This document shows positions 754 to 62,276 of a stretch of 64,000 bases of DNA, in pieces. A model generated the notes under the pieces. That model was given only the letters and a program-made list of their open reading frames with translations, was not told where the DNA came from and searched no databases. The stretch lies in contig DRFQ01000009.1 in assembly GCA_011050465.1 (NCBI GenBank), forward strand, positions 64,334 to 128,333, written 5' to 3'. Each line of letters opens with the position of its first letter. Positions within the stretch are counted from its first letter, which is position 1. Source of the DNA: Candidatus Nealsonbacteria bacterium (GTDB lineage: Bacteria > Patescibacteriota > Minisyncoccia > Minisyncoccales > RBG-13-36-15). Both the position numbers and the translations under genes were made by a program.

Positions 754-3700
754 ATGCAGCTAGACTTAAAAAAACTAAACAAAGAGCAAAAAGAGGCGGT
801 GATCCACAGCAAGGGGCCGCTTTTGATTGTGGCAGGATCTGGAACCGGGAAAACAACGGTGATTACCCAAAGGATTGCTTATTTGATTGAAAAGGGGATG
901 GCCAAACCGGAAGAAATTTTAGCTGTTACCTTTACTGAGAAAGCGGCCGAAGAAATGGAGGAAAGGATTGATAGGCTTTTACCATACGGTTACGTTGATT
1001 TATGGATTTTAACTTTCCATTCTTTTTGCGAAAGAGTTTTAAGAGACCACGCTCTGGACATTGGTCTACCGGCCGATTTCAAGATTTTGGAACCGACGGC
1101 GGGATGGCTTTTGGTGCGTCAGAACCTGGACAAGTTTGAACTTGATTATTACAAGCCCCTGGGCAATCCGACTAAATTCATTCAGGCTTTAATTTCTCAT
1201 TTTTCCCATTGCAAAGATCAGGAGATTTACCCCGAAGATTATTTGGAATACGCCGATAAATTAAAAACCAGAGACGATGTGCCGGAAACTCAAGAAACAG
1301 AAAGGATAAAGGAAGTGGCCAATGCCTTCCACGTTTATCAAAGATTGCTTCTGGAAAATAGCTCTTTAGACTTCGGAGATTTGATAAATTACTGTCTGAA
1401 GCTATTTAAAAAAAGGCCTTTGATTCTGAAAAAATACAGGGAAAAATTCAAATACATTTTAGTTGACGAATTTCAGGATACTAATTGGTCACAGTATGAA
1501 TTGATAAAGATTTTGGCGGCGCCCAAAAACAATCTGACCGTCTGCGCTGATGACGACCAGGCGATTTACCGCTGGAGGGGGGCGTCTTTTGCCAATATTA
1601 TCCAATTTATAAAGGATTTCCCGAAAGCAAAACAAATATCTTTGGTTAAAAATTACAGGTCTGCCCAGAATATCCTGGATTTGGCCTACAAATTTATAAA
1701 AGCCAACGATCCCGATCGGCTTGAATACGTGAATAAAATCAATAAAAAATTAATTGCAGACAATAAGGGGAAAGGAATAATTGAGCATATCCACGCCAAA
1801 AGTCTGGACGAGGAAGCCGGGAAAACAATCAGGAAAATCCTGGAAGTTTTAAAAAAAGATAAAGAGATAAATTACAATGATATTGCTATTTTAGTTAGGG
1901 CGAACAACGCGGCAAATTCTTTCACAAAAGCCCTGGAAAGAGCGGGTCTGCCCTATCAATTTTTGGCTTCAAAAGGGCTTTATGCAAAGCCCTGTGTTCT
2001 GGACGTTATTTCCTATTTCAAACTTTTGGACAATTACCACGAAAGCCCGGCGGTTTACAGGGTTCTGAATCTGCCCTTTTTGGGAATTCCCTACGATGAT
2101 ATAGTGAAGCTCACTCAATATGGCCACCGCAAAACAAAATCTCTTTACGAGGTGATGGAAGAGCTCCCTTTGGTTTCCGGGATATCTAAAAAAACGCAGA
2201 GAAAAACCGCTTTTATTCTGAGCTTGATTAAGAAACACATCGCCCTTTCGCGGGAGAAAGCGGTTTCGGAAATGCTGATAGCTTTTTTGAAAGATTCCGG
2301 CTATTTGAAATATCTGGTGGATAAAGACGATAAAGAGCAGATTGATATTCTCAACCAGTTCTACAAAAGAATAAAGAATTTTGAAGAAGCCGCGACAGAG
2401 CCAAATTTAAAGAATTTCATGGAAGAAATAACTTTTGAAATAGAATCGGGAGAAGAGGGGAAGCTTGAGTTTGATCCCAAACAGGGTCCGGATATGATAA
2501 AAGTGATGACCATTCACGGAGCCAAAGGTTTGGAGTTCAAATATGTCTTTTTGGTCAATATGGTGGACAAAAGATTCCCGACCATTGAAAGGAAAGATTT
2601 AATTGAGCTTCCCGAAGAATTGATTAAAGACATCAAGCCCGAGGGAGATGTCCATTTGCAGGAAGAAAGGAGGATTTGTTACGTGGCGATGACTAGGGCC
2701 AAAAAAGAGCTTTATTTCACTTCAGCCGAGGATTACGGCCTGGTGAGGAAAAAGAGATTGTCGCGATTTTTGATAGAAATGGGCTATAAAGATAAATCCG
2801 AAACCGACCGGACGCGAAACGGACTCCCCGGAGGGTTGCATTCGCCAGATCGAGCGAAGCGAGGGACTCCCCGGAGGGTTGCATCCAAAAACAGTTTGCT
2901 TGCGCCATCTTTCATTAAAACTGCCCCTTTCGCCGAAGTAGCTCTCGCCTCGCCGAAGCCTTCGGCGAAGCGCGGGTCGGCTACGAAGGGTAAAAGAAAA
3001 ACAGGATCAGACTATCTTCCCGGACATTTTTCTTTTTCCCAACTGGCCGCTTTTGAAAAATGTCCCCTGCAGTACAAATTAAATTTTATTTTAAAAGTTC
3101 CCATCAAAGGCAAGGCTGTGTTCTCGTTCGGAAAAACAATGCACAACACTTTTTATAATTTTTTGAAATACGTAAACGAAAACAATAAAAACAATCAAGG
3201 CAATTTGTTTGGTTTTGCCGCCTCTTCCGCGAAAGAGGCGAGCCTCGCCCTTTCGGGGCGGGAAGATAGGTTGAGATTAAATGATCTGATGGAAATTTAC
3301 GAAAAAAACTGGATTGATGAATGGTACGAAAATAAAAATCAAAAAGAAGAATACTACAAGCTCGGCAAGAAAATAGTTAAAGATTTTTACGAAGAATTTG
3401 TAAAAAATCCGCCGAAGATTTTAAAAATTGATAATACCCTTGCTTTAGAAATGCCGTTTAATTTGAAAATAGGAGGGCATACCTTATACGGCGTAATAGA
3501 TAGAATTGATGAAACGGAAGGGGGAGTGGCGATTATTGATTACAAAACAGGAAATTCGAAAGAAAAATTGGTCTTGAGCGACAAGGAACAATTATTAATT
3601 TATCAAATAGCGGTTGAGGAGATTTTTAAAATAAAACCGAAAGAACTAATTTATTATTATTTGAACGACGGCAAGAAAGCGTCTTTCCTGGGTTCGGATA

Positions 3701-3834
3701 AGGAAAAAGGTCGTCTTAAAGAAAAAATCATTCAGGAGATCGAAGAAATAAAAAAGAGCGATTTTAAGGCAACGCCCGGCTGGCAATGCGGATTTTGCGA
3801 CTTTAAAGATATCTGTGACTTCGCAGAAAGGTAA
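754..3834 (+). CDS. UvrD/PcrA-type superfamily 1 helicase fused to a C-terminal PD-(D/E)XK nuclease with a Cas4/AddB-like four-Cys cluster
   Basis: Walker A GSGTGKTT, DEFQDT, the VKNYRS and TIHGAKGLEF helicase motifs. C-terminal IIDYKTG plus Cys residues (EKCP ... WQCGFCDFKDIC). The start is moved to ATG 754 because the track start at 718 overlaps the -10-like box. Confidence 0.85.
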   Translation: MQLDLKKLNKEQKEAVIHSKGPLLIVAGSGTGKTTVITQRIAYLIEKGMAKPEEILAVTFTEKAAEEMEERIDRLLPYGYVDLWILTFHSFCERVLRDHALDIGLPADFKILEPTAGWLLVRQNLDKFELDYYKPLGNPTKFIQALISHFSHCKDQEIYPEDYLEYADKLKTRDDVPETQETERIKEVANAFHVYQRLLLENSSLDFGDLINYCLKLFKKRPLILKKYREKFKYILVDEFQDTNWSQYELIKILAAPKNNLTVCADDDQAIYRWRGASFANIIQFIKDFPKAKQISLVKNYRSAQNILDLAYKFIKANDPDRLEYVNKINKKLIADNKGKGIIEHIHAKSLDEEAGKTIRKILEVLKKDKEINYNDIAILVRANNAANSFTKALERAGLPYQFLASKGLYAKPCVLDVISYFKLLDNYHESPAVYRVLNLPFLGIPYDDIVKLTQYGHRKTKSLYEVMEELPLVSGISKKTQRKTAFILSLIKKHIALSREKAVSEMLIAFLKDSGYLKYLVDKDDKEQIDILNQFYKRIKNFEEAATEPNLKNFMEEITFEIESGEEGKLEFDPKQGPDMIKVMTIHGAKGLEFKYVFLVNMVDKRFPTIERKDLIELPEELIKDIKPEGDVHLQEERRICYVAMTRAKKELYFTSAEDYGLVRKKRLSRFLIEMGYKDKSETDRTRNGLPGGLHSPDRAKRGTPRRVASKNSLLAPSFIKTAPFAEVALASPKPSAKRGSATKGKRKTGSDYLPGHFSFSQLAAFEKCPLQYKLNFILKVPIKGKAVFSFGKTMHNTFYNFLKYVNENNKNNQGNLFGFAASSAKEASLALSGREDRLRLNDLMEIYEKNWIDEWYENKNQKEEYYKLGKKIVKDFYEEFVKNPPKILKIDNTLALEMPFNLKIGGHTLYGVIDRIDETEGGVAIIDYKTGNSKEKLVLSDKEQLLIYQIAVEEIFKIKPKELIYYYLNDGKKASFLGSDKEKGRLKEKIIQEIEEIKKSDFKATPGWQCGFCDFKDICDFAER
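2798..2990 (+). repeat. GC-rich repeat block embedded in frame in the helicase-nuclease linker
   Basis: A 21-nt perfect direct repeat ggactccccggagggttgcat lies at 2821-2841 and 2864-2884. The palindrome cgccgaagccttcggcg is also present. GC is far above the flanking coding sequence. Confidence 0.7.
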
Positions 3835-3931: not shown

Positions 3932-5122
3932 ATGGAATTGTTTGTTGATAAAATTTTTTCAGTGTCGGAGTTTATCGCCCTTCTTAATATTGGGCTGAAA
4001 AGCTCCAAAGCGAAGATTATAGGGGAGGTTGGGGAAGCAAAGGCTGGACCGACAGGTCATGTTTATTTTACTTTGAAGGATGAAAATGACCAAAGTATAA
4101 TGAAGTGTATAATCTGGAAATCAAGATATAATTTATATGACATAAAATTGCAAGAAGGGATGAAAATTATGGCTTACGGCTACCCCGAAATATATCCGCC
4201 TTCGGGAAGGTTGTCTTTTATAGCCGAAACGATTGAGCTGGCGGGGGAGGGCGGATTAAAAAAACAATACGACGAACTGAAGAAAAAACTGGAGAAAGAG
4301 GGTATTTTTGCCGAAGAGAAAAAGCGGCCCGTTCCAAGATACCCGCAGAGAATCGGAGTTATCACTTCTAAGCAGGGCGCGGTTATGGCCGATTTTCTTA
4401 ATAATATAGGGAAATTCGGTTTTAAGATCAAAATGATTGATTCCCGGGTTGAAGGCCAAACAGCTACCAGAGATTTATTGGCGTCAATAAAAACGTTCAG
4501 AAAACAAGATATAGATGTTCTTGTCATAATCCGCGGAGGGGGATCATTGGAGTCGTTGATGCCGTTTAATAATGAATTATTGGTCAGGGAAGTGGCTAAT
4601 TTCCCGGTTCCGGTAATCGCAGGCATCGGACACGACAAGGACGAGCCGCTTGTTGCCTTGGCGGCCGATGTTTCAGAATCCACCCCGACCGCCGCTGCCA
4701 ATCTGCTTAACGAATCATGGGAACAAGCTCTGCTATTCTTGGAAAGATACGAAAGAAATATTATTGATCGCTATGAAATGATCTTAGACAATTACAAGGC
4801 GATTGAAAACGAATTAAAGATTTCCCTACGTAATTTTAAAAACGCTTTATTAAATGCTAAAATCAGCTTGAGAGACTCGTTGAATAAATCTTTGTCCGGA
4901 TTCAGATCGTTATTATTGGCAGTTAATCAAAAGCTGGGACAGGCGGAAAAAGCTGTTTTTTTTAATAATCCGGAGCGCCAGATTCGTCTGGGATACAGCA
5001 TTGCCAGTTGCGACGGAAAAATAGTCAGACGAACGGGAGATGTCAAGATCGGGAAAAATATAGACATTAAAGTAATAGACGGGAAAATTATTTCAGAAGT
5101 TAAAAATATAAACAAAAATTAA
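3932..5122 (+). CDS. xseA: Exodeoxyribonuclease VII large subunit
   Basis: N-terminal OB-fold signature (GHVYFTLKD ... IIWKS). Length and the adjacent small subunit gene fit. Confidence 0.85.
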   Translation: MELFVDKIFSVSEFIALLNIGLKSSKAKIIGEVGEAKAGPTGHVYFTLKDENDQSIMKCIIWKSRYNLYDIKLQEGMKIMAYGYPEIYPPSGRLSFIAETIELAGEGGLKKQYDELKKKLEKEGIFAEEKKRPVPRYPQRIGVITSKQGAVMADFLNNIGKFGFKIKMIDSRVEGQTATRDLLASIKTFRKQDIDVLVIIRGGGSLESLMPFNNELLVREVANFPVPVIAGIGHDKDEPLVALAADVSESTPTAAANLLNESWEQALLFLERYERNIIDRYEMILDNYKAIENELKISLRNFKNALLNAKISLRDSLNKSLSGFRSLLLAVNQKLGQAEKAVFFNNPERQIRLGYSIASCDGKIVRRTGDVKIGKNIDIKVIDGKIISEVKNINKN

Positions 5123-5126
5123 GATT

Positions 5127-5369
5127 ATGGCTGCTAAAGAAAAATTAGATGCAAAAAATTTAAACAGCAACCTTAAACGTCTCGCCAAGATTACCGAGTG
5201 GTTTGACAATCAGGAGGAAATTGACGTTGAAGAAGGATTGAATAAAGTAAAAGAAGCGGTTGGGCTTATCAAAGTCAGCAAAGAAAGACTTAAAGCTATT
5301 GAAAACGAATTCGAGGAAATCAAAAAAGAGATAGATATTGAGGAGGAAGAAGAGAAAGAAAAACGTTAA
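5127..5369 (+). CDS. xseB: Exodeoxyribonuclease VII small subunit
   Basis: 80-aa helical acidic protein immediately after xseA, with the typical L..L..I...L......L..A layout. Confidence 0.75.
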   Translation: MAAKEKLDAKNLNSNLKRLAKITEWFDNQEEIDVEEGLNKVKEAVGLIKVSKERLKAIENEFEEIKKEIDIEEEEEKEKR

Positions 5370-5450
5370 ATCGGAAGTTGAACTTTCGACATTCCACAGG
5401 TTATTACTCAAACTTAAGGTGACTGTCACCCGGGAGCGTAATATGGATTT

Positions 5451-6008
5451 ATGGACTTAAAAGAAGAGAAAAAGCTCATTCAAAAAGCTAAGCAAAATCC
5501 AGAAGTTTTTGGTAGGCTTTACGAACAACATTATCCAAAGATTTTTGGCTATATTTTAAAAAGGACTGCCAATTTTGAAATTGCCCAGGATATAACTTCA
5601 GAGACGTTTTTTAAGGCCCTAAAAAAGCTCTGGCAGTTTCACTGGAAAAATATTCCATTTTCCTCTTGGCTTTATAGAATTGCCAACAATGAAATTGCTA
5701 ATTACTTTAGGAAAAATAAGCATAAACCAGTTCCATTAGAGAGCATCCCAGAGCCATTTTCTACTTCAAATTCAAATCCTTCAGCTGATATTCTTGAAGC
5801 TGAAGAAGAATTAAAAAAGCACCAAGATTTTTTAGTGCTTCAGAAAGAGATTTCCAAATTGTCCGCTAAATATCAAGAAGTAATCATCTTAAGATTTTTT
5901 GATAAAAAACAGATTAAAGAAATCGCAGAAATTTTAGGGAAAAGAGAAGGAACAATAAAATCTTTACTCCATCGAGGTTTAGAGAAATTAAGACAATCTG
6001 TGGAATAA
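5451..6008 (+). CDS. ECF-type RNA polymerase sigma-70 family factor
   Basis: Region 2 (FFKALKKLWQF ... WLYRIANNEIANYFRK) and a region 4 HTH (IKEIAEILGKREGTIKSLLHRGLEKLR). Confidence 0.85.
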   Translation: MDLKEEKKLIQKAKQNPEVFGRLYEQHYPKIFGYILKRTANFEIAQDITSETFFKALKKLWQFHWKNIPFSSWLYRIANNEIANYFRKNKHKPVPLESIPEPFSTSNSNPSADILEAEEELKKHQDFLVLQKEISKLSAKYQEVIILRFFDKKQIKEIAEILGKREGTIKSLLHRGLEKLRQSVE

Positions 6009-10142: not shown

Positions 10143-11681
10143 ATGGATAAAAATTATATAATCGAAACATTAAAAAATCAGTTAGAGGGGTATAAGCCAA
10201 AAACCGAAGTGGCAAATATCGGGAATGTTATAAAGATAGGGGATGGGATAGCCACTGTTTCCGGGCTCTCTAACGTTATGGCGGCCGAAATGCTTGAGTT
10301 CGTAACAAAAGAAGGAAGCGTTTTTGGCATGGCTTTAAACCTTGAAGAAGATCAGGTTGGCGCAATGATTTTAGGTGACTTTAGTAAGATTAAAAATGGT
10401 GATTTGGTAAAAAGTACAGGTAGAGTTTTATCAGTTCCGGTAAATCGTTCACTCATCGGCAGAGTCATAAATCCTTTAGGAGAACCGGTTGATGAGAAAG
10501 GCCCCATTCCTTCAACTAATATTGAATATTATCCAATTGAAAGAAAAGCTTTTGGCATAGTCGAAAGAGAACCGGTAAACACTCCGATTCATACCGGCAT
10601 TAAGGCTATTGATTCAATGATTCCGATCGGAAGGGGACAGCGAGAATTGATTATCGGCGATAGACAGATTGGAAAAACAGCCCTTGTGGTTGATACGATT
10701 ACAAACCAGATTCAAGATACAAAATACAGAACTCCTATTTGTATTTATGTGGCTATCGGCCAGAAAGAATCTAAGGTTGTAAAAATTGTCGAAGAATTAA
10801 AGGCCAGAGGAGCCATGGATTATACAATAGTTATTTCGGCTCCAGCTTCTAGTCCAGCCGCTCTGTGGTTTATTGCTCCTTATGCCGGCTGCGCTATCGG
10901 CGAATACTTTATGGATAAAGGCGAAGATGCCCTGGTAATTTATGATGATTTAACAAAACATGCCTGGGCATACCGACAGATTTCATTGCTTTTAAGAAGA
11001 CCGCCCGGTAGAGAAGCTTATCCTGGAGATGTCTTTTATTTGCATTCAAGGTTATTAGAAAGAGCGGCTAAGCTTAACAAAAAACATGGAGGAGGGTCTT
11101 TAACTGCATTGCCGATAATCGAGACCCAGCTTGGCGATATCTCTTCTTATATTCCGACAAATGCTATTTCAATTACTGATGGCCAGATTTATCTGGAATC
11201 TGAGCTTTTCTATCACGGCATAAGGCCTGCTCTAAATGTTGGACTTTCTGTTTCTCGTGTGGGTTCTTCGGCTCAGACTAAAGCAATGAAGAAAGTATCT
11301 TCTAAGTTAAGGTTGGAACTTGCCCAGTTTAAAGAGCTTCAAGCCTTTGTTCGATTCGCGTCAGAACTTGATGAACCCACTAGAAAGAGAATCGAGAGAG
11401 GACAGCGACTGACAGAAATTCTAAAACAGCCTCAATATGCACCAGTTCCTTTTGAAAAGCAGGTTTGTCTAATATATGCGGGTGTCAACGGCTATTTAGA
11501 TATTCTTCCTTTAGAGAAAATAAAAGATTTTGAAGACAAATTATTTCGCTATCTCGAAGATCGTCATCAGCAGGATATTTTAGATAAAATTAGAGAGACG
11601 TCTGATTTATCAGAGGAGGTAGAGAGCAAGCTTAAAGAAGCAATTCAATTTCAAGTTAATGAATTAATAAAAACAGGGTAA
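10143..11681 (+). CDS. atpA: ATP synthase F1 subunit alpha
   Basis: Walker A GDRQIGKT plus [12 protein letters not shown] and [21 protein letters not shown]. Confidence 0.95.
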
Positions 11682-14485: not shown

Positions 14486-15091
14486 ATGAATAAAATCTAT
14501 ATTTTTTTTATATTAATAATTTTAATTTTGGGGGGTTATTTTTTCATTGTCCAAAATAGGGGAGAGGAATCCATGGACCGTAATATTATAACTCCGCTCG
14601 ACACTAATATGATTGCGACAATGCAGACTAATTTTGGTGAGATTAAATTAGAGCTTTTCTCGTCTGATGCGCCAAAAACAGTCGAGAATTTCATTAAGCT
14701 TGCTGAGTCAGGTTTTTATGATGGCGTAAAATTCCACCGAGTGATTAAAGGGTTTATGATTCAAGGTGGCGATCCTCTCAGTAAAGACAATGCTTTGAAA
14801 GATAGATGGGGAACAGGGGGGCCCGGCTATACTTTCTCAGATGAAATCCACTCAAAGAACCGTAATGTTGTAGGCACCATTTCCATGGCCAATGCTGGAC
14901 CAAACACAAATGGCAGTCAGTTTTTTATCAATACTAATGATAATAACAGTCTCGATAACAAGCATACTGTTTTCGGTAAAGTAATAACAGGGATTGATAT
15001 CGTTGAAAATATTGAAAATGTAGCCACAGAAGGTCCGGACCGTCCGGTCGATGATGTAATTATCGAAAGTATTAAGATAACAAGCAACTAA
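14486..15091 (+). CDS. ppiB: Cyclophilin-type peptidyl-prolyl cis-trans isomerase with an N-terminal membrane anchor
   Basis: FHRVIKGFMIQGGDP, SMANAGPNTNGSQFFI and HTVFGKV motifs. N-terminal hydrophobic helix. Confidence 0.9.
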   Translation: MNKIYIFFILIILILGGYFFIVQNRGEESMDRNIITPLDTNMIATMQTNFGEIKLELFSSDAPKTVENFIKLAESGFYDGVKFHRVIKGFMIQGGDPLSKDNALKDRWGTGGPGYTFSDEIHSKNRNVVGTISMANAGPNTNGSQFFINTNDNNSLDNKHTVFGKVITGIDIVENIENVATEGPDRPVDDVIIESIKITSN

Positions 15092-15168
15092 GCACGGTGC
15101 TGAACCAGCCCCGAACTAGAACGAAGTTCAGTTCGGGGCTTTATGCGGGGTAAAGTTTTTGGTAAGAT
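15091..15168 (+). repeat. Family B intergenic cassette, copy 2 (hairpin 15109-15138 is inverted relative to copy 1)
   Basis: The flanks are colinear with copies 1 and 3. The central hairpin is the exact reverse complement of 669-696. The copy ends in tttttggtaagat, 23 nt before the ATG at 15192. Confidence 0.8.
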
Positions 15169-15191
15169 AGAAAGCAAAATTTTATTCTAAT

Positions 15192-21884: not shown

Positions 21885-22885
21885 ATACACACTTTTGGCG
21901 GTTTGGTTAGTTAATAATTTTAAGCATTTGATTCGGCGTCTTTCCGTTAAGTCCGCAATGTTTTGTGTCGTTGTATTCCATATTCCACAATCTTAATTTG
22001 TATCTTAGATCTTCGAAAGATTTAAATTCAGTTTCATCATAGAATTTCTCTTGATCTTCTCTGTGAGATCTCTCTACAAAACTGTTCTGCCGGGGTTTGC
22101 CCGGGTCAATCAAATGGTGGGGTATGCCCAATTCCTGGCAGAGTATATCGAAGGGGTGCAGCCTCGGGTTTAAAGGGTCTGTGCTTTTATTATATCCTGT
22201 ATACCTGTTGGTGAAACAAGAAGTATTATCTGTCTTAATTGCTTTAATTTCAAAGTTGGCAATGGCTATTAGTTCTCTCAAAAACCTTATCGCGCTGAGA
22301 TTGGAAGCATCCTCGTATGCTTGCAAATACCTCCACCTTGAGCCGCAATCTATGGCTGTAAATTGATAATATCTCTGCCCTTTTATCTTATCTGGAACAT
22401 ATTTTACATCAATCTTTACCAGCTCACCCTTCTTTAAAGGAATTCTAACATATTTGTATTTAATCTTCCTTGTCCTGTATTTTCTGGTCAGTCCTTCATT
22501 TTTAATTATCTTCTGGATAGTTTGGTAATGTATGTTTATTCCTTCTTCCCCTAAGTCTCACTGCACTTTCAAGGCGCATTGCTTTTTCTCTTTTCTCAAT
22601 TCAATAATTCTTTCCTTTATCCTGATGGGCGTTTCTTTGGGATTTGTTTTGGGCCTTGTAGATTTCGGTTCCAATCCCTCCTCTCCGTATATCTTGTAGT
22701 TATGCAGCCACCTTTCTAATGTTCTTTTAGCGGTAGGGACACATTTTGGCGGCGTTCGTAATGCTTACTTCTTTGTTCAAAATGGGCAATATCCATCTTA
22801 ACCGTTTCTCTTTAATTGTTTTGGCCATATTTACACACATATACCGAAACTATATCAGCTTCGGTAAAACCCGCCATATGTGTAT
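21885..22885 (-). mobile_element. Decayed IS481-family-like insertion sequence (about 1 kb)
   Basis: Imperfect terminal inverted repeats: atacacacttttggcggttt (21885-21904) versus the reverse complement of aaacccgccatatgtgtat (22867-22885). They enclose an rve-type transposase reading frame. Confidence 0.6.
21907..22828 (-). pseudogene. IS481-like DDE (rve) transposase, disrupted
   Basis: The N-terminal HTH part MAKTIKEKRLRWILPILNKEVSITNAAKMCPY is followed by a frameshift. An in-frame TGA follows (ALKVQ*DLGEEG). The frame then continues YYQFTAIDCGSRWRYLQAYEDAS into the 139-aa ORF, which carries IKTDN and VERSHRED. Confidence 0.7.
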
Positions 22886-55821: not shown

Positions 55822-57744
55822 ATGGCAAAAATATTAGGCATTGATTTAGGAACCACTTTTTCAGCTATGGCCGTGATAGAAAGTGGAGAACCTAAAATTG
55901 TTGAAAATAAAGAAGGAGCCAGGACAACTCCTTCAGTTGTAGCTATTACTAAAACCGGCGAGAGATTAGTAGGAGTGGTAGCTAAAAGACAGCAGATTAC
56001 TAATCCCCAAAACACAATTTTTTCAATAAAAAGGTTGATGGGACGACGATTTTCAGATTTAGTGATTCAGCAGGACAAAAAGCTCTTGCCTTATGAAATA
56101 AGAGAAAGAGAAGACGGGGGAGTTGAGGTAAGGATAGGAGATAAATGGTACACTCCTCCTGAAGTCTCAGCTATGATTTTGCAGAAGTTAAAGCACGATG
56201 CTGAGGAAAAATTAGGAGAGAAAATTATCGATGCTATCATTACCTGCCCTGCTTATTTCGATGATTCGCAGAGAAAAGCAACAAAAGTGGCGGGAGAAAT
56301 CGCAGGATTCAACGTTAAAAGAGTGATCAACGAACCCACCGCCGCCGCTTTGGCTTATGGGTTAACAAGAAAGAAAGAAGAACAAATTGTTGTCTATGAC
56401 TTTGGGGGAGGAACTTTTGATATTTCAATTTTAGACGTTGGGACAGATACGGTGGAAGTTAAGGCAACCGGCGGCGATACGCACCTGGGTGGAGATGACT
56501 TTGACCAAAAAATAATGGACTGGGTGGTAACCGAATTTAAAAAAGACCAAGGGATTGATTTATCGAAAGACTCTTTGGCTCTACAACGGATTAAAGAGGC
56601 TGCCGAGAAAGCTAAGATTGAATTATCAACAACCCTGGAAACAGAGGTCAACATTCCGTTTGTCACTTCAGACGCCTCAGGTCCTAAACATCTTTATTAT
56701 AAACTAACAAGGGCTCAACTTGAGAATTTGGTCAAAGATTATATTGAACAATCCATTGATCTTGTCAAAAAAACCCTAAAAGAGTCAAAACTTGACGTTA
56801 AAGATATTGATGAAATAGTTTTAGTGGGTGGTCAAACCAGAATGCCAAAAATTCAGCAAGAGCTTAAAGATTTTTTCGGCAAAGAAGCCCATAAAGGAAT
56901 TAATCCCGACGAAGTGGTAGCAATTGGAGCTGCAGCCGAAGGAGGAATTTTGGGGGGAGAAATTAAAGAAGTATTGCTTCTGGATGTTACCCCTCTTTCT
57001 TTAGGTATTGAAACCATGGGACAAATCAGTACAGTTTTAATCCAAAAAAATACAACCATTCCCACTTCTAAAACTCAAATTTTTTCTACCGCCTCCGATA
57101 GTCAAACCACAGTCGAAGTCCGTGTTTTACAAGGAGAAAGGTCAATGGCTACTGACAACAAAACCTTGGGAAGATTTATTTTAGATGGTATTCCTTCTGC
57201 TCCTCGGGGAATTCCCCAAATTGAAGTTACCTTTGATATTGATGCAGACGGTCTATTAAATGTTTCAGCTAAGGATAAAGCCAGCGGCAAAACGCAGTCA
57301 GTAAGAATTGAGGGTTCTTCCGGTCTTTCAAAAGAAGAGATAGAAAAAATGAAAAAAGAGGCAGAAGCACATACAGCCGAAGATCAGAAGAAACGAGAAT
57401 TAGTAGAAGTGAGAAATTCAGCCGATAATTTAATCTACACCACAGAAAAAACCTTGAAAGAATCAGGTTCTAAGATGAATCAAGATTTAAAAAAAGAGAT
57501 TGAAGGAAAAATAGAAAATTTGAAAAAAATAAAAGAGGGTGATACTATAGAGGAAACAAAAAGCAAGATCGCAGAATTATCTCAGGCTATTCAAAAGGCA
57601 GGAGCTGAATTATACCGTCAGACCAAGGAAGAGAAGTCAGCCCCAAAAGACGATGGCTCCGACTCGGAGACGGGGCAAGAGCCTCGCCAAGGGCGGGATG
57701 AGAAAAAGCCAGAAGCTGAGGAGGGGGAGTATAAAGAGAAGTAG
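55822..57744 (+). CDS. dnaK: Chaperone DnaK (Hsp70)
   Basis: Motifs GIDLGTTFS, DFGGGTFDIS, VLVGGQTRMP and DVTPLSLGIET. Confidence 0.97.
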   Translation: MAKILGIDLGTTFSAMAVIESGEPKIVENKEGARTTPSVVAITKTGERLVGVVAKRQQITNPQNTIFSIKRLMGRRFSDLVIQQDKKLLPYEIREREDGGVEVRIGDKWYTPPEVSAMILQKLKHDAEEKLGEKIIDAIITCPAYFDDSQRKATKVAGEIAGFNVKRVINEPTAAALAYGLTRKKEEQIVVYDFGGGTFDISILDVGTDTVEVKATGGDTHLGGDDFDQKIMDWVVTEFKKDQGIDLSKDSLALQRIKEAAEKAKIELSTTLETEVNIPFVTSDASGPKHLYYKLTRAQLENLVKDYIEQSIDLVKKTLKESKLDVKDIDEIVLVGGQTRMPKIQQELKDFFGKEAHKGINPDEVVAIGAAAEGGILGGEIKEVLLLDVTPLSLGIETMGQISTVLIQKNTTIPTSKTQIFSTASDSQTTVEVRVLQGERSMATDNKTLGRFILDGIPSAPRGIPQIEVTFDIDADGLLNVSAKDKASGKTQSVRIEGSSGLSKEEIEKMKKEAEAHTAEDQKKRELVEVRNSADNLIYTTEKTLKESGSKMNQDLKKEIEGKIENLKKIKEGDTIEETKSKIAELSQAIQKAGAELYRQTKEEKSAPKDDGSDSETGQEPRQGRDEKKPEAEEGEYKEK

Positions 57745-57768
57745 CGCTCAGCAACGAAGTCTCAAAGT

Positions 57769-57830
57769 ACCGACCCTCAAAATCCCAGGACATTCGGCTG
57801 AGCTCAGTCGAAGCCCGAGATTTTGGGGTC
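57769..57830 (+). repeat. Family A GC-rich element, short intergenic variant
   Basis: accgaccctcaaaatcccaggacattcggCTGAGCTCAGtcgaagcccgagatt. Stem gaccctcaaaatc/gattttggggtc. Confidence 0.8.
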
Positions 57831-57957
57831 TGCGTTCTCGGCTTCTCGTCCGCCTTCGGCGGAACCATGCCGATGAGCCTGCGAAAGCTACTTTAAAACT
57901 TGTTGCCTCGCTTAGAGATTATTCGTATATGCGTAATAATTCGTAATTCGTAGGGAT

Positions 57958-62184: not shown

Positions 62185-62276
62185 CACGAATTACCGATCA
62201 GTGCGAATATACGAAGCAACCCTACGGAGAGTTGCTTTAAGTAACAGCGTAGATTCGTAGATATTCGTAATTTGTG
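62185..62276 (+). other. About 90-nt imperfect compound hairpin in the pyrG leader
   Basis: Outer stem cacgaattac (62185-62194)/gtaatttgtg (62267-62276). Inner pairings cgaatat/atattcg and gcaac/gttgc. Confidence 0.5.

Follow-up and report, generated by a model that had tools for sequence, protein, structure and literature searches.

A dispersed, probably selfish 34-nt GC-rich element in heptanucleotide arrays of protein genes in Patescibacteria

Rickettsia palindromic elements (RPEs) are families of short non-coding repeats in a reduced, AT-rich bacterial genome, where they lie in frame in unrelated housekeeping genes and are translated (PMC10969869). GC clusters of yeast mitochondria, which also occupy an AT-rich genome, are GC-rich, hairpin-forming sequences of 30–50 nt with AG or TAG terminal direct repeats that are read as target duplications; they are mostly intergenic and also occur as polymorphic in-frame insertions in var1 (PMC8811140). 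The byps of Magnusiomyces capitatus mitochondria are short GC-rich insertions in protein genes, again in an AT-rich genome (PMC8811140). Here we describe a 34-nt GC-rich sequence, termed the core, that occurs as a pair in a helicase-nuclease gene of a Candidatus Nealsonbacteria bacterium (GenBank assembly GCA_011050465.1) and in unrelated genes of other genomes. The window analyzed is the 64,000-nt stretch from 64,334 to 128,333 of contig DRFQ01000009.1, forward strand, and positions given without a locus name refer to it. Genomes of the candidate phyla radiation (CPR), or Patescibacteria, count among the smallest and most streamlined genomes known, and selfish DNA is thought to be scarce in them. 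In the literature that we searched, neither such elements nor heptanucleotide arrays are described for CPR bacteria.

We found that the core family is dispersed and sporadic, that it lies at junctions of heptanucleotide arrays in a fixed phase and that its translation is tolerated. The phenomenon, selfish repeats in protein genes, is known in kind and is found here in Patescibacteria, in heptad arrays of essential genes. For the helicase gene, we assign a probability of about 0.72 to the reading that its GC-rich block consists of nucleotide-level, probably selfish mini-elements in a dispensable linker, kept only because the frame was preserved. Like RPEs, the core is inserted in frame in unrelated protein genes and, as open reading frames (ORFs) suggest, translated by the host. 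RPEs, however, are ~100–150 bp long, with long palindromes and a peptide conserved in one frame, whereas the core has 34 nt, two 3-bp mini-hairpins and three reading frames, and unlike RPEs it lies in heptanucleotide arrays and in Patescibacteria, a comparison made by description, not by sequence. Its GC-richness, 3-nt flanking repeats, polymorphic presence and in-frame position recall GC clusters, a functional resemblance and not homology; GC clusters are organellar, belong to other sequence families, are more fully palindromic and have no described association with 7-nt arrays. Size (20–40 nt), a small hairpin, occurrence as singletons and pairs and a lack of coding capacity are shared with repetitive extragenic palindromic (REP) sequences and bacterial interspersed mosaic elements (BIMEs). 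REPs are extragenic and abundant, with a 5′ GTAG-type tetranucleotide and a REP-associated tyrosine transposase (RAYT) gene, while the core is mostly intragenic, low in copy number and has a 3–4-bp hairpin; it lacks a GTAG-type head, and no RAYT was present among the scanned ORFs of the 64-kb window. Miniature inverted-repeat transposable elements have terminal inverted repeats, in contrast to the core. Byps interrupt the frame and are skipped by the ribosome, whereas every coding copy of the core keeps its ORF open, and translation through the core would be the simpler reading.

The sequence-only reading of the window had described a GC-rich block of ~190 nt in which a 21-nt direct repeat is read in two frames. 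The 21-mer GGACTCCCCGGAGGGTTGCAT occurs exactly at 2821–2841 and 2864–2884 on the plus strand, with a spacing of 43 nt, and no further match with up to three mismatches was found in the window (0 expected, 100 shuffles). Translation of the ORF confirmed the two frames (GLPGGLH for copy 1, (G)TPRRVAS for copy 2) and that the ORF stays open across the block. Repeats of the TCGCCGAAG type are present at 2930, 2950 and 2962, and the palindrome cgccgaagccttcggcg at 2951–2967 is real; an inverted-repeat search extended it to CGCCTCGCCGAAGCCTTCGGCGAAGCG at 2946–2972, with 13-nt arms (2946–2958 and 2960–2972). GC content is 0.55–0.60 over 2801–3000 vs. 0.36 for the window, so that the GC-richness of the block stands, but not its unity, as two insertions are split by native sequence (Table 1). 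The earlier finding is real and its interpretation right, yet incomplete, in that the composite nature of the block and its heptanucleotide-array target were missed.

Two segments, residues 689–710 (nt 2818–2883) and 723–742 (nt 2920–2979), were present only in the window protein when it was aligned with the 109 intein-free sequences among 120 listed homologues. The first insertion (insA, a net 66 nt or 22 aa) consists of two 34-nt elements in tandem, and the second (insB, 60 nt, 20 aa) is a separate palindromic insertion after 35 nt of native sequence. Linkers of insertion-free orthologues are 42 aa shorter, which counters the possibility that orthologues without the repeats have a linker of the same length. 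The closest orthologues (~86% at the amino acid level) lack both segments, and among the 120 orthologues the insertion peptides were found in the window's own strain only. Both insertions are also absent at the DNA level from L001, L022 and L023, of which L001 is the closest insertion-free orthologue (92% nucleotide identity in the flanks); compared to the empty site of L022, 12 nt are replaced by 78 nt (2806–2883). Within insA, copy 1 has a weakened mini-hairpin (GCGAAAC), and copy 2 is identical to copy 1 over the right 21 nt and diverged in its left half, with 3 extra nt (TCGAGCGAAGCGAG). Predicted peptides of the block, translated from 2808–2979, include NGLPGGLHSPDR, GTPRR/VASK and TAPFAEVALASPK.

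Table 1 Features of the helicase-nuclease gene and its surroundings, and genes hosting the core at other loci
Feature	Position or locus	Strand	Basis and remarks
Host gene, UvrD-type superfamily 1 (SF1) helicase fused to PD-(D/E)XK (Cas4/AddB-like) nuclease	754..3834	+	ORF; 1026 aa
Interdomain linker (aa 660-757)	2731..3024	+	Pfam domain limits and orthologue alignment; partly encoded by heptanucleotide array
Heptad-array remnant left of insertion	2794..2807	+	AAATCCG AAACCGA; AAATCCGAAACC common to L022 empty site
Core copy 1, 34 nt, CCGGACGCGAAACGGACTCCCCGGAGGGTTGCAT	2808..2841	+	Covariance model 55.4 bits, E = 3e-14; family alignment; read RTRNGLPGGLH
Spacer TCGCCAGA between the two cores	2842..2849	+	Sequence
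Core copy 2	2850..2884	+	Covariance model 2845-2884, 30.4 bits, E = 2e-6; read RAKRGTPRRVA(S)
Native linker SKNSLLAPSFIK	2885..2919	+	Conserved in orthologues; separates the two insertions
insB, 60-nt GC-rich in-frame insertion TAPFAEVALASPKPSAKRGS	2920..2979	+	Absent from all orthologues; palindrome and TCGCCGAAG repeats
Family 2 mini-element, GAGCCTCGCC-loop-GGGCGGGA	3240..3263	+	Variable nuclease-domain loop of helicase gene; two-hairpin fold z = -2.35
Possible decayed 34-nt core	62214..62247	-	Intergenic; 22/34 identical; covariance model 14.4 bits, E = 0.15; blastn 17/20; weak evidence
Host PolX	L004, L011		Pfam
Host MurC	L005		Pfam; core reversed
Host RsmH/MraW	L007		Pfam
Host FemAB	L008		Pfam
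Host POR/IOR-type thiamine pyrophosphate (TPP) enzyme	L012		Pfam
Host Fmt	L019		Pfam
Host class-I aminoacyl-tRNA synthetases (IleS-like, ValS-like)	L006, L010		Pfam; L006 is IleS-like
Host RpoC	L017		Pfam
Host UvrA	L020		Pfam; tandem core pair

All members of the core family were ascertained by exact match to the 21-mer, which forms the right part of the core at every locus. Exact matches were obtained at four loci of GTDB species genomes and on 15 contigs from metagenomes, and none in viral contigs; carriers include JAUWMZ01, JAUWAW01 and the contigs Ga0209979_1000076, Ga0315547_1000182 and Ga0114920_10000005; the matching sequences are all CPR-like with 34–40% GC, and the named ones are Nealsonbacteria or ‘Saccharibacteria’ metagenome-assembled genomes. 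Merging same-locus duplicates left 14 further distinct loci with 15 copies. With the window included, 11 of 15 distinct loci lie inside long ORFs (12 of 16 with a reversed relative in L027), some copies are intergenic, and the coding copies belong to at least 11 different host gene families. The ORF is open through every coding copy, and all three frames as well as the reverse orientation are used, yielding LDAKRTPRRVA, WTRxGLPGGLH or GREADSPEGC depending on the frame and MQPSGESALRP from the reversed copy in MurC. The use of three frames and of the reverse orientation, in unrelated proteins, shows that the DNA and not the peptide is conserved; the earlier proposal of maintenance at the nucleotide level thereby gains much stronger support, from at least 14 other loci.

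Over 1283 nt, the L004 and L011 PolX genes share 67% identity, and both carry the core at the same site, in different frames; the two cores are identical at 31 of 34 positions, with differences in the hairpin only. A reverse-oriented relative occupies this site in L027, and in L028 the site (~11300–11400) holds an unrelated, perfect palindrome with 20-nt arms, AGAGAACGGGTCTCGGACAG GA CTGTCCGAGACCCGTTCTCT, translated in frame. The core in forward orientation is absent from all 120 closest PolX homologues, most of which have plain heptad-coded peptides there, such as SKFEIRNSKF or YKLQIVNSKF. The tandem pair in UvrA (L020) resembles the pair in the window in its frame order (F2 then F1), its left flank AAATCCGAAA, the TCG after core 1 and the CCAAAA after core 2. 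At the heptad site of the L011 PolX gene (4880–4945), we also observed two additional hairpins with AAA triloops, CGATTGCAAAGCAATCG and CCTCGACAAAGTCGGG.

Members of the family share a constant left end, CTGGAC, followed by a mini-hairpin of 3–4 bp with an A-rich triloop and the constant right part GGACTCCCCGGAGGGTTGCAT; GC content of the core is 0.65–0.68 vs. 0.36 in the background. Mini-hairpin variants are GCGAAGC, GCAAAGC, CCAAAGG, CCAAGGG, CCAGAGG, TCGAAGA and, in L016, the 4-bp form GCCCGCAGGC. Over eight distinct sequences, the middle pair (positions 7–13) is GC in four, CG in three and UA in one, and never unpaired, which is suggestive of compensatory change; the covariation score was matched by 5 of 500 shuffles. 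Folding of the core, the core pair and the whole block was no better than that of shuffles (z from −1.0 to +1.2), so that stability alone does not define the element. Rfam at gathering thresholds returned nothing but one tRNA in the window, and only noise over 2740–3320 at E ≤ 10. The core is stop-free in six frames, as are 20% of composition-matched shuffles and 0.5% of random 34-mers of genome composition. Since it is stop-free and encodes flexible peptides rich in Gly, Pro, Arg and Ser, loops and linkers would tolerate it.

Nearly all core copies are bordered by 7-nt tandem repeats (AAATTCC, AAATCCG, AAATCCA, AAATCCC or GAAACCT). The 3 nt before CTGGAC equal the 3 nt after GCAT in 12 of 16 copies and differ among loci (TCC, CCG, CCA, CCC, CTG). 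At the place of the insertion, the linker of L001 has the array GAAATCG GAAATTC GAAATCA GAAAAC (GAAATCA × 3.6; 2222–2246), and typical linker peptides of helicase orthologues, such as KSEIRNPKSEN and KFQISNFKFQN, are heptad-encoded. The heptad array thus predates the insertion, because orthologue linkers are heptad-encoded without a core. Arrays of 7-nt repeats (AAATTCC, TTTCGAA, TTTTTGA) are pervasive in these CPR genomes, both inside long ORFs and between genes; the IleS-like ORF of L006 (4861–7998) has them at 5243, 5784, 6160, 6225, 7042, 7861 and 7878. As 7 is not a multiple of 3, the arrays are read in all three frames in turn, and they encode peptides of K, N, S, Q, F and I with a 7-aa period.

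We propose that the core spreads by a transposition-like insertion at AAAN-YYN|AAA, in fixed heptad phase, that duplicates 3 nt of the target and may proceed via a single-stranded hairpin. Transposition-like insertion is favored because the left and right trinucleotides match in a locus-specific manner at each locus, and the constant ends together with the covarying hairpin suggest that a protein recognizes the core, perhaps on single-stranded DNA. Template switching or gene conversion guided by the heptads would be a less likely route. A gain of 34 + 3 nt would shift the frame by +1, such that only length-corrected copies would survive in genes. Slippage in the array could restore the frame, because 7 is congruent to 1 modulo 3 and each 7-nt unit gained or lost shifts the frame by one; such repair may be the reason that arrays are the only places where coding copies occur. 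Nothing in this reading implies that the helicase gains from the insertions.

Several observations weigh against the reading as selfish, mobile mini-elements. Copy number is low, with one locus and one weak match in 64 kb, and peptide-based searches yielded no more copies: six-frame peptides of the core had no candidate sharing three words in an index of 5.8 billion proteins, which is uninformative, and a phmmer search with the insA peptide (30 aa) gave no matches among 1.84 billion representatives, the query being too short for significance. The perfect conservation of the right half is in part an ascertainment effect of the exact 21-mer search, array periodicity confounds any interpretation of the 3-nt ‘target duplication’ and the covariation rests on one base pair in 8–10 sequences. 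Fold energies of the core do not exceed those of shuffles, and it lacks terminal inverted repeats, as CTGGAC… and …TTGCAT are not reverse complements. No transposase or partner was found, and no HUH/Y1 enzyme or RAYT among the scanned ORFs (30 of the 51 in the window, ~10 more being annotated on the near-identical L002). Finally, insB has no relatives that we could find, and the term ‘element’ is applied to it by analogy only. IS481/IS3-like remnants, comprising a decayed rve_3 ORF of 139 aa and upstream helix-turn-helix-like fragments in other frames, lie at 21907–22840 on the minus strand, and no link between the rve_3 fragments and the core was found.

For insB, the RNA fold has an energy of −27.6 kcal/mol (z = −2.5), and the 3′ end GCGAAGCGCGGG resembles GCGAAGCGAGGG, the left part of core copy 2. 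Searches of the window, of 187 kb of related DNA and of viral contigs gave no relatives, with only chance-level 13-nt matches in the window and the related DNA. By analogy with the palindrome at the PolX site of L028, insB is probably another GC-rich palindromic insertion.

A second mini-element, family 2, has the form GAGCCTCGCC-[2–7 nt]-GGGCGGGA and occurred three times in 187 kb vs. 0 in shuffles. Besides the loop in the nuclease domain of the helicase (ASLALSGRE), it was found in the C-terminal tail of DnaK (57679–57698, EPRQGRD) and, in another genome, in a small zinc-ribbon ORF (L009 1356–1377, minus strand, RASPEGRE). Its first block is read in a different frame in each of the three copies. 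Viral contigs had only chance matches to the pattern, in phage contigs of 61–68% GC.

A broader and distinctly speculative proposal is that heptad arrays act as frame-buffering landing pads for several GC-rich hairpin families, namely the 34-nt core, family 2, palindromes of the L028 type and insB. These would be moved by an undescribed mechanism that recognizes a single-stranded DNA hairpin and the fixed AAAN-YYN phase, with the frame rescued by 7-nt slippage. If true, this would be an unrecognized route for the gain and loss of loops in essential proteins of ultra-small genomes.

We consider it unlikely that the core is instead a selected cis-acting host site, such as a protein-binding site or a structural signal in DNA or mRNA, that is coding because there is little non-coding space. 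Identity of the right 21 nt in host genes that are only 67% identical would fit such a site, but it is partly forced by the exact-match search. The core has the orientation of its host gene at 11 of 13 coding loci, a bias that selection on a site could produce but that can also be explained by the flanking-heptad peptides, which consist of Lys, Asn, Ser and Gln when the A-rich strand is read and of Phe, Leu and Trp on the T-rich strand. Compensatory changes in the mini-hairpin and a low per-genome copy number, as for parS- or matS-type sites, are likewise compatible with a host site, whereas sporadic occurrence (1 of 120 helicases and ~3 of ~122 PolX genes) in differing frames and orientations, unrelated host genes with arbitrary loop positions and the existence of degenerate copies (window copy 2, 62214–62247 and L020b) argue against it.

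It is improbable that the linker was lengthened adaptively at the protein level, to give a longer, basic, DNA-contacting tether between helicase and nuclease. The inserted peptides are rich in Arg, Lys, Gly and Pro, lie between the domains and keep the frame in both insertions, yet the two copies in the window gene are themselves in different frames, copies in other hosts are read in three frames and in reverse to give unrelated peptides, and ~120 orthologues function with the linker that is 42 aa shorter. Slightly less probable still is an origin of the 21-nt repeat by local tandem duplication or slippage of a 43-nt unit, as two perfect copies 43 nt apart in a short region might suggest. The sequences to their left differ (CCGGACGCGAAAC vs. 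TCGAGCGAAGCGAG), the spacer is not repeated after copy 2 and Tandem Repeats Finder reported no tandem array at the block; the diverged left half of copy 2, with its three extra bases, speaks against a clean duplication in situ. Moreover, single cores are found in many other genes and genomes, and a similar pair with diverged members is present in UvrA. Short direct repeats and palindromes can mislead assemblers, but an assembly artefact or chimera at the repeat can be set aside because L002, an ENA scaffold from a separate assembly record with 99.7% identity, holds both insertions base for base, and the ORF is intact with insertions that are multiples of 3 nt.

Five further candidates were rejected: a CRISPR mini-array (two copies only, inside an open ORF, with the unit single in other genes), an intein (present in some orthologues, but elsewhere in the protein), an internal Shine-Dalgarno role of GGAGGG (reversed copies exist), a DNA uptake sequence (far too few copies) and a ribosomal bypass element, which would be hard to reconcile with a frame that is continuous and stop-free in every coding copy.

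The reading as mini-elements in a dispensable linker places a near-identical 34-nt element in essential genes (those for RNA polymerase, tRNA synthetases, UvrA, MurC, PolX and the helicase-nuclease) across lineages whose genes are ~67% identical. One could therefore search for the core as a marker of recent DNA movement, both inside uncultured CPR organisms and from one to another. It also explains some of the odd low-complexity insertions that inflate CPR proteins and disturb alignments and domain annotation, and it suggests that changes in protein length are concentrated at heptanucleotide arrays. Core-derived segments should not be annotated as functional linkers.

Pfam assigns UvrD-helicase to residues 8–290 of the helicase-nuclease, UvrD_C to 295–659 and PDDEXK_1 to 758–1022, in agreement with the earlier placement of the block in a linker between the SF1 helicase core and the nuclease. 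This linker is hypervariable across orthologues in the alignment. Parcubacteria, Nealsonbacteria and other Patescibacteria supplied the 120 best homologues, which are typically 960–1010 aa long when intein-bearing ones are set aside. An intein (Pfam PF14890, in some cases with PF01079) was observed in P0014, P0020, P0026, P0032, P0057 and others, with lengths of ~1350 aa; the window's gene has none. AlphaFold modeled residues 676–760 as coil (pLDDT, the predicted local distance difference test score, of 24–34), which is weakly consistent with a flexible linker, the model of the whole protein being poor (mean pLDDT 58, predicted template modeling score 0.34). Read from the sequence, recombination between the 21-nt repeats (2821–2884) would remove 43 nt and, through the frameshift, bring a TAG at 2939–2941 into frame, leaving a helicase without its nuclease domain; the repeats thus mark a site at which such a deletion would remove that domain. 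L002 shows no such deletion.

Upstream of the helicase gene, the intergenic segment 500–715 is GC-rich and has a predicted fold of −100.7 kcal/mol (z = −7.7 vs. shuffles), with no Rfam family. In L001 the inner ~80 nt with two hairpins are missing and the outer stem is kept, with a compensatory change (CCCCGCA/TGCGGGG vs. CCCCGTA/TACGGGG). A cassette at 636–730 recurs at 15076–15175, upstream of a different gene; in it, an extended −10-like TGGTAGAAT comes after a GC-rich hairpin (CCCGAACT...AGTTCGGGG) whose loop has opposite orientations in the two copies.

The candidate core at 62214–62247 is bordered by ATTCGTA heptads. Arrays of this heptad (57920–57957 and 62250–62275) immediately precede the dnaJ start and the gene that begins at 62272, and the motif is also present in another genome (L011 3613–3649). 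The dnaK-dnaJ spacer (57745–57900) is GC-rich and hairpin-rich. Residues 344–509 of the L006 IleS-like ORF appear to form a His_Phos_1 (histidine-phosphatase) domain embedded in the class-I aminoacyl-tRNA synthetase frame, and the IleS-like gene of L027 is immediately preceded by a separate His_Phos_1 gene. Compared to 5369–5451 of the window, L002 has a partial tandem duplication of ~110 nt at 5353–5543, in the intergenic region before a sigma-factor gene, in which ACTCAAACTTAAGGTGACTGTCACCCGGGAGCGTA is repeated.

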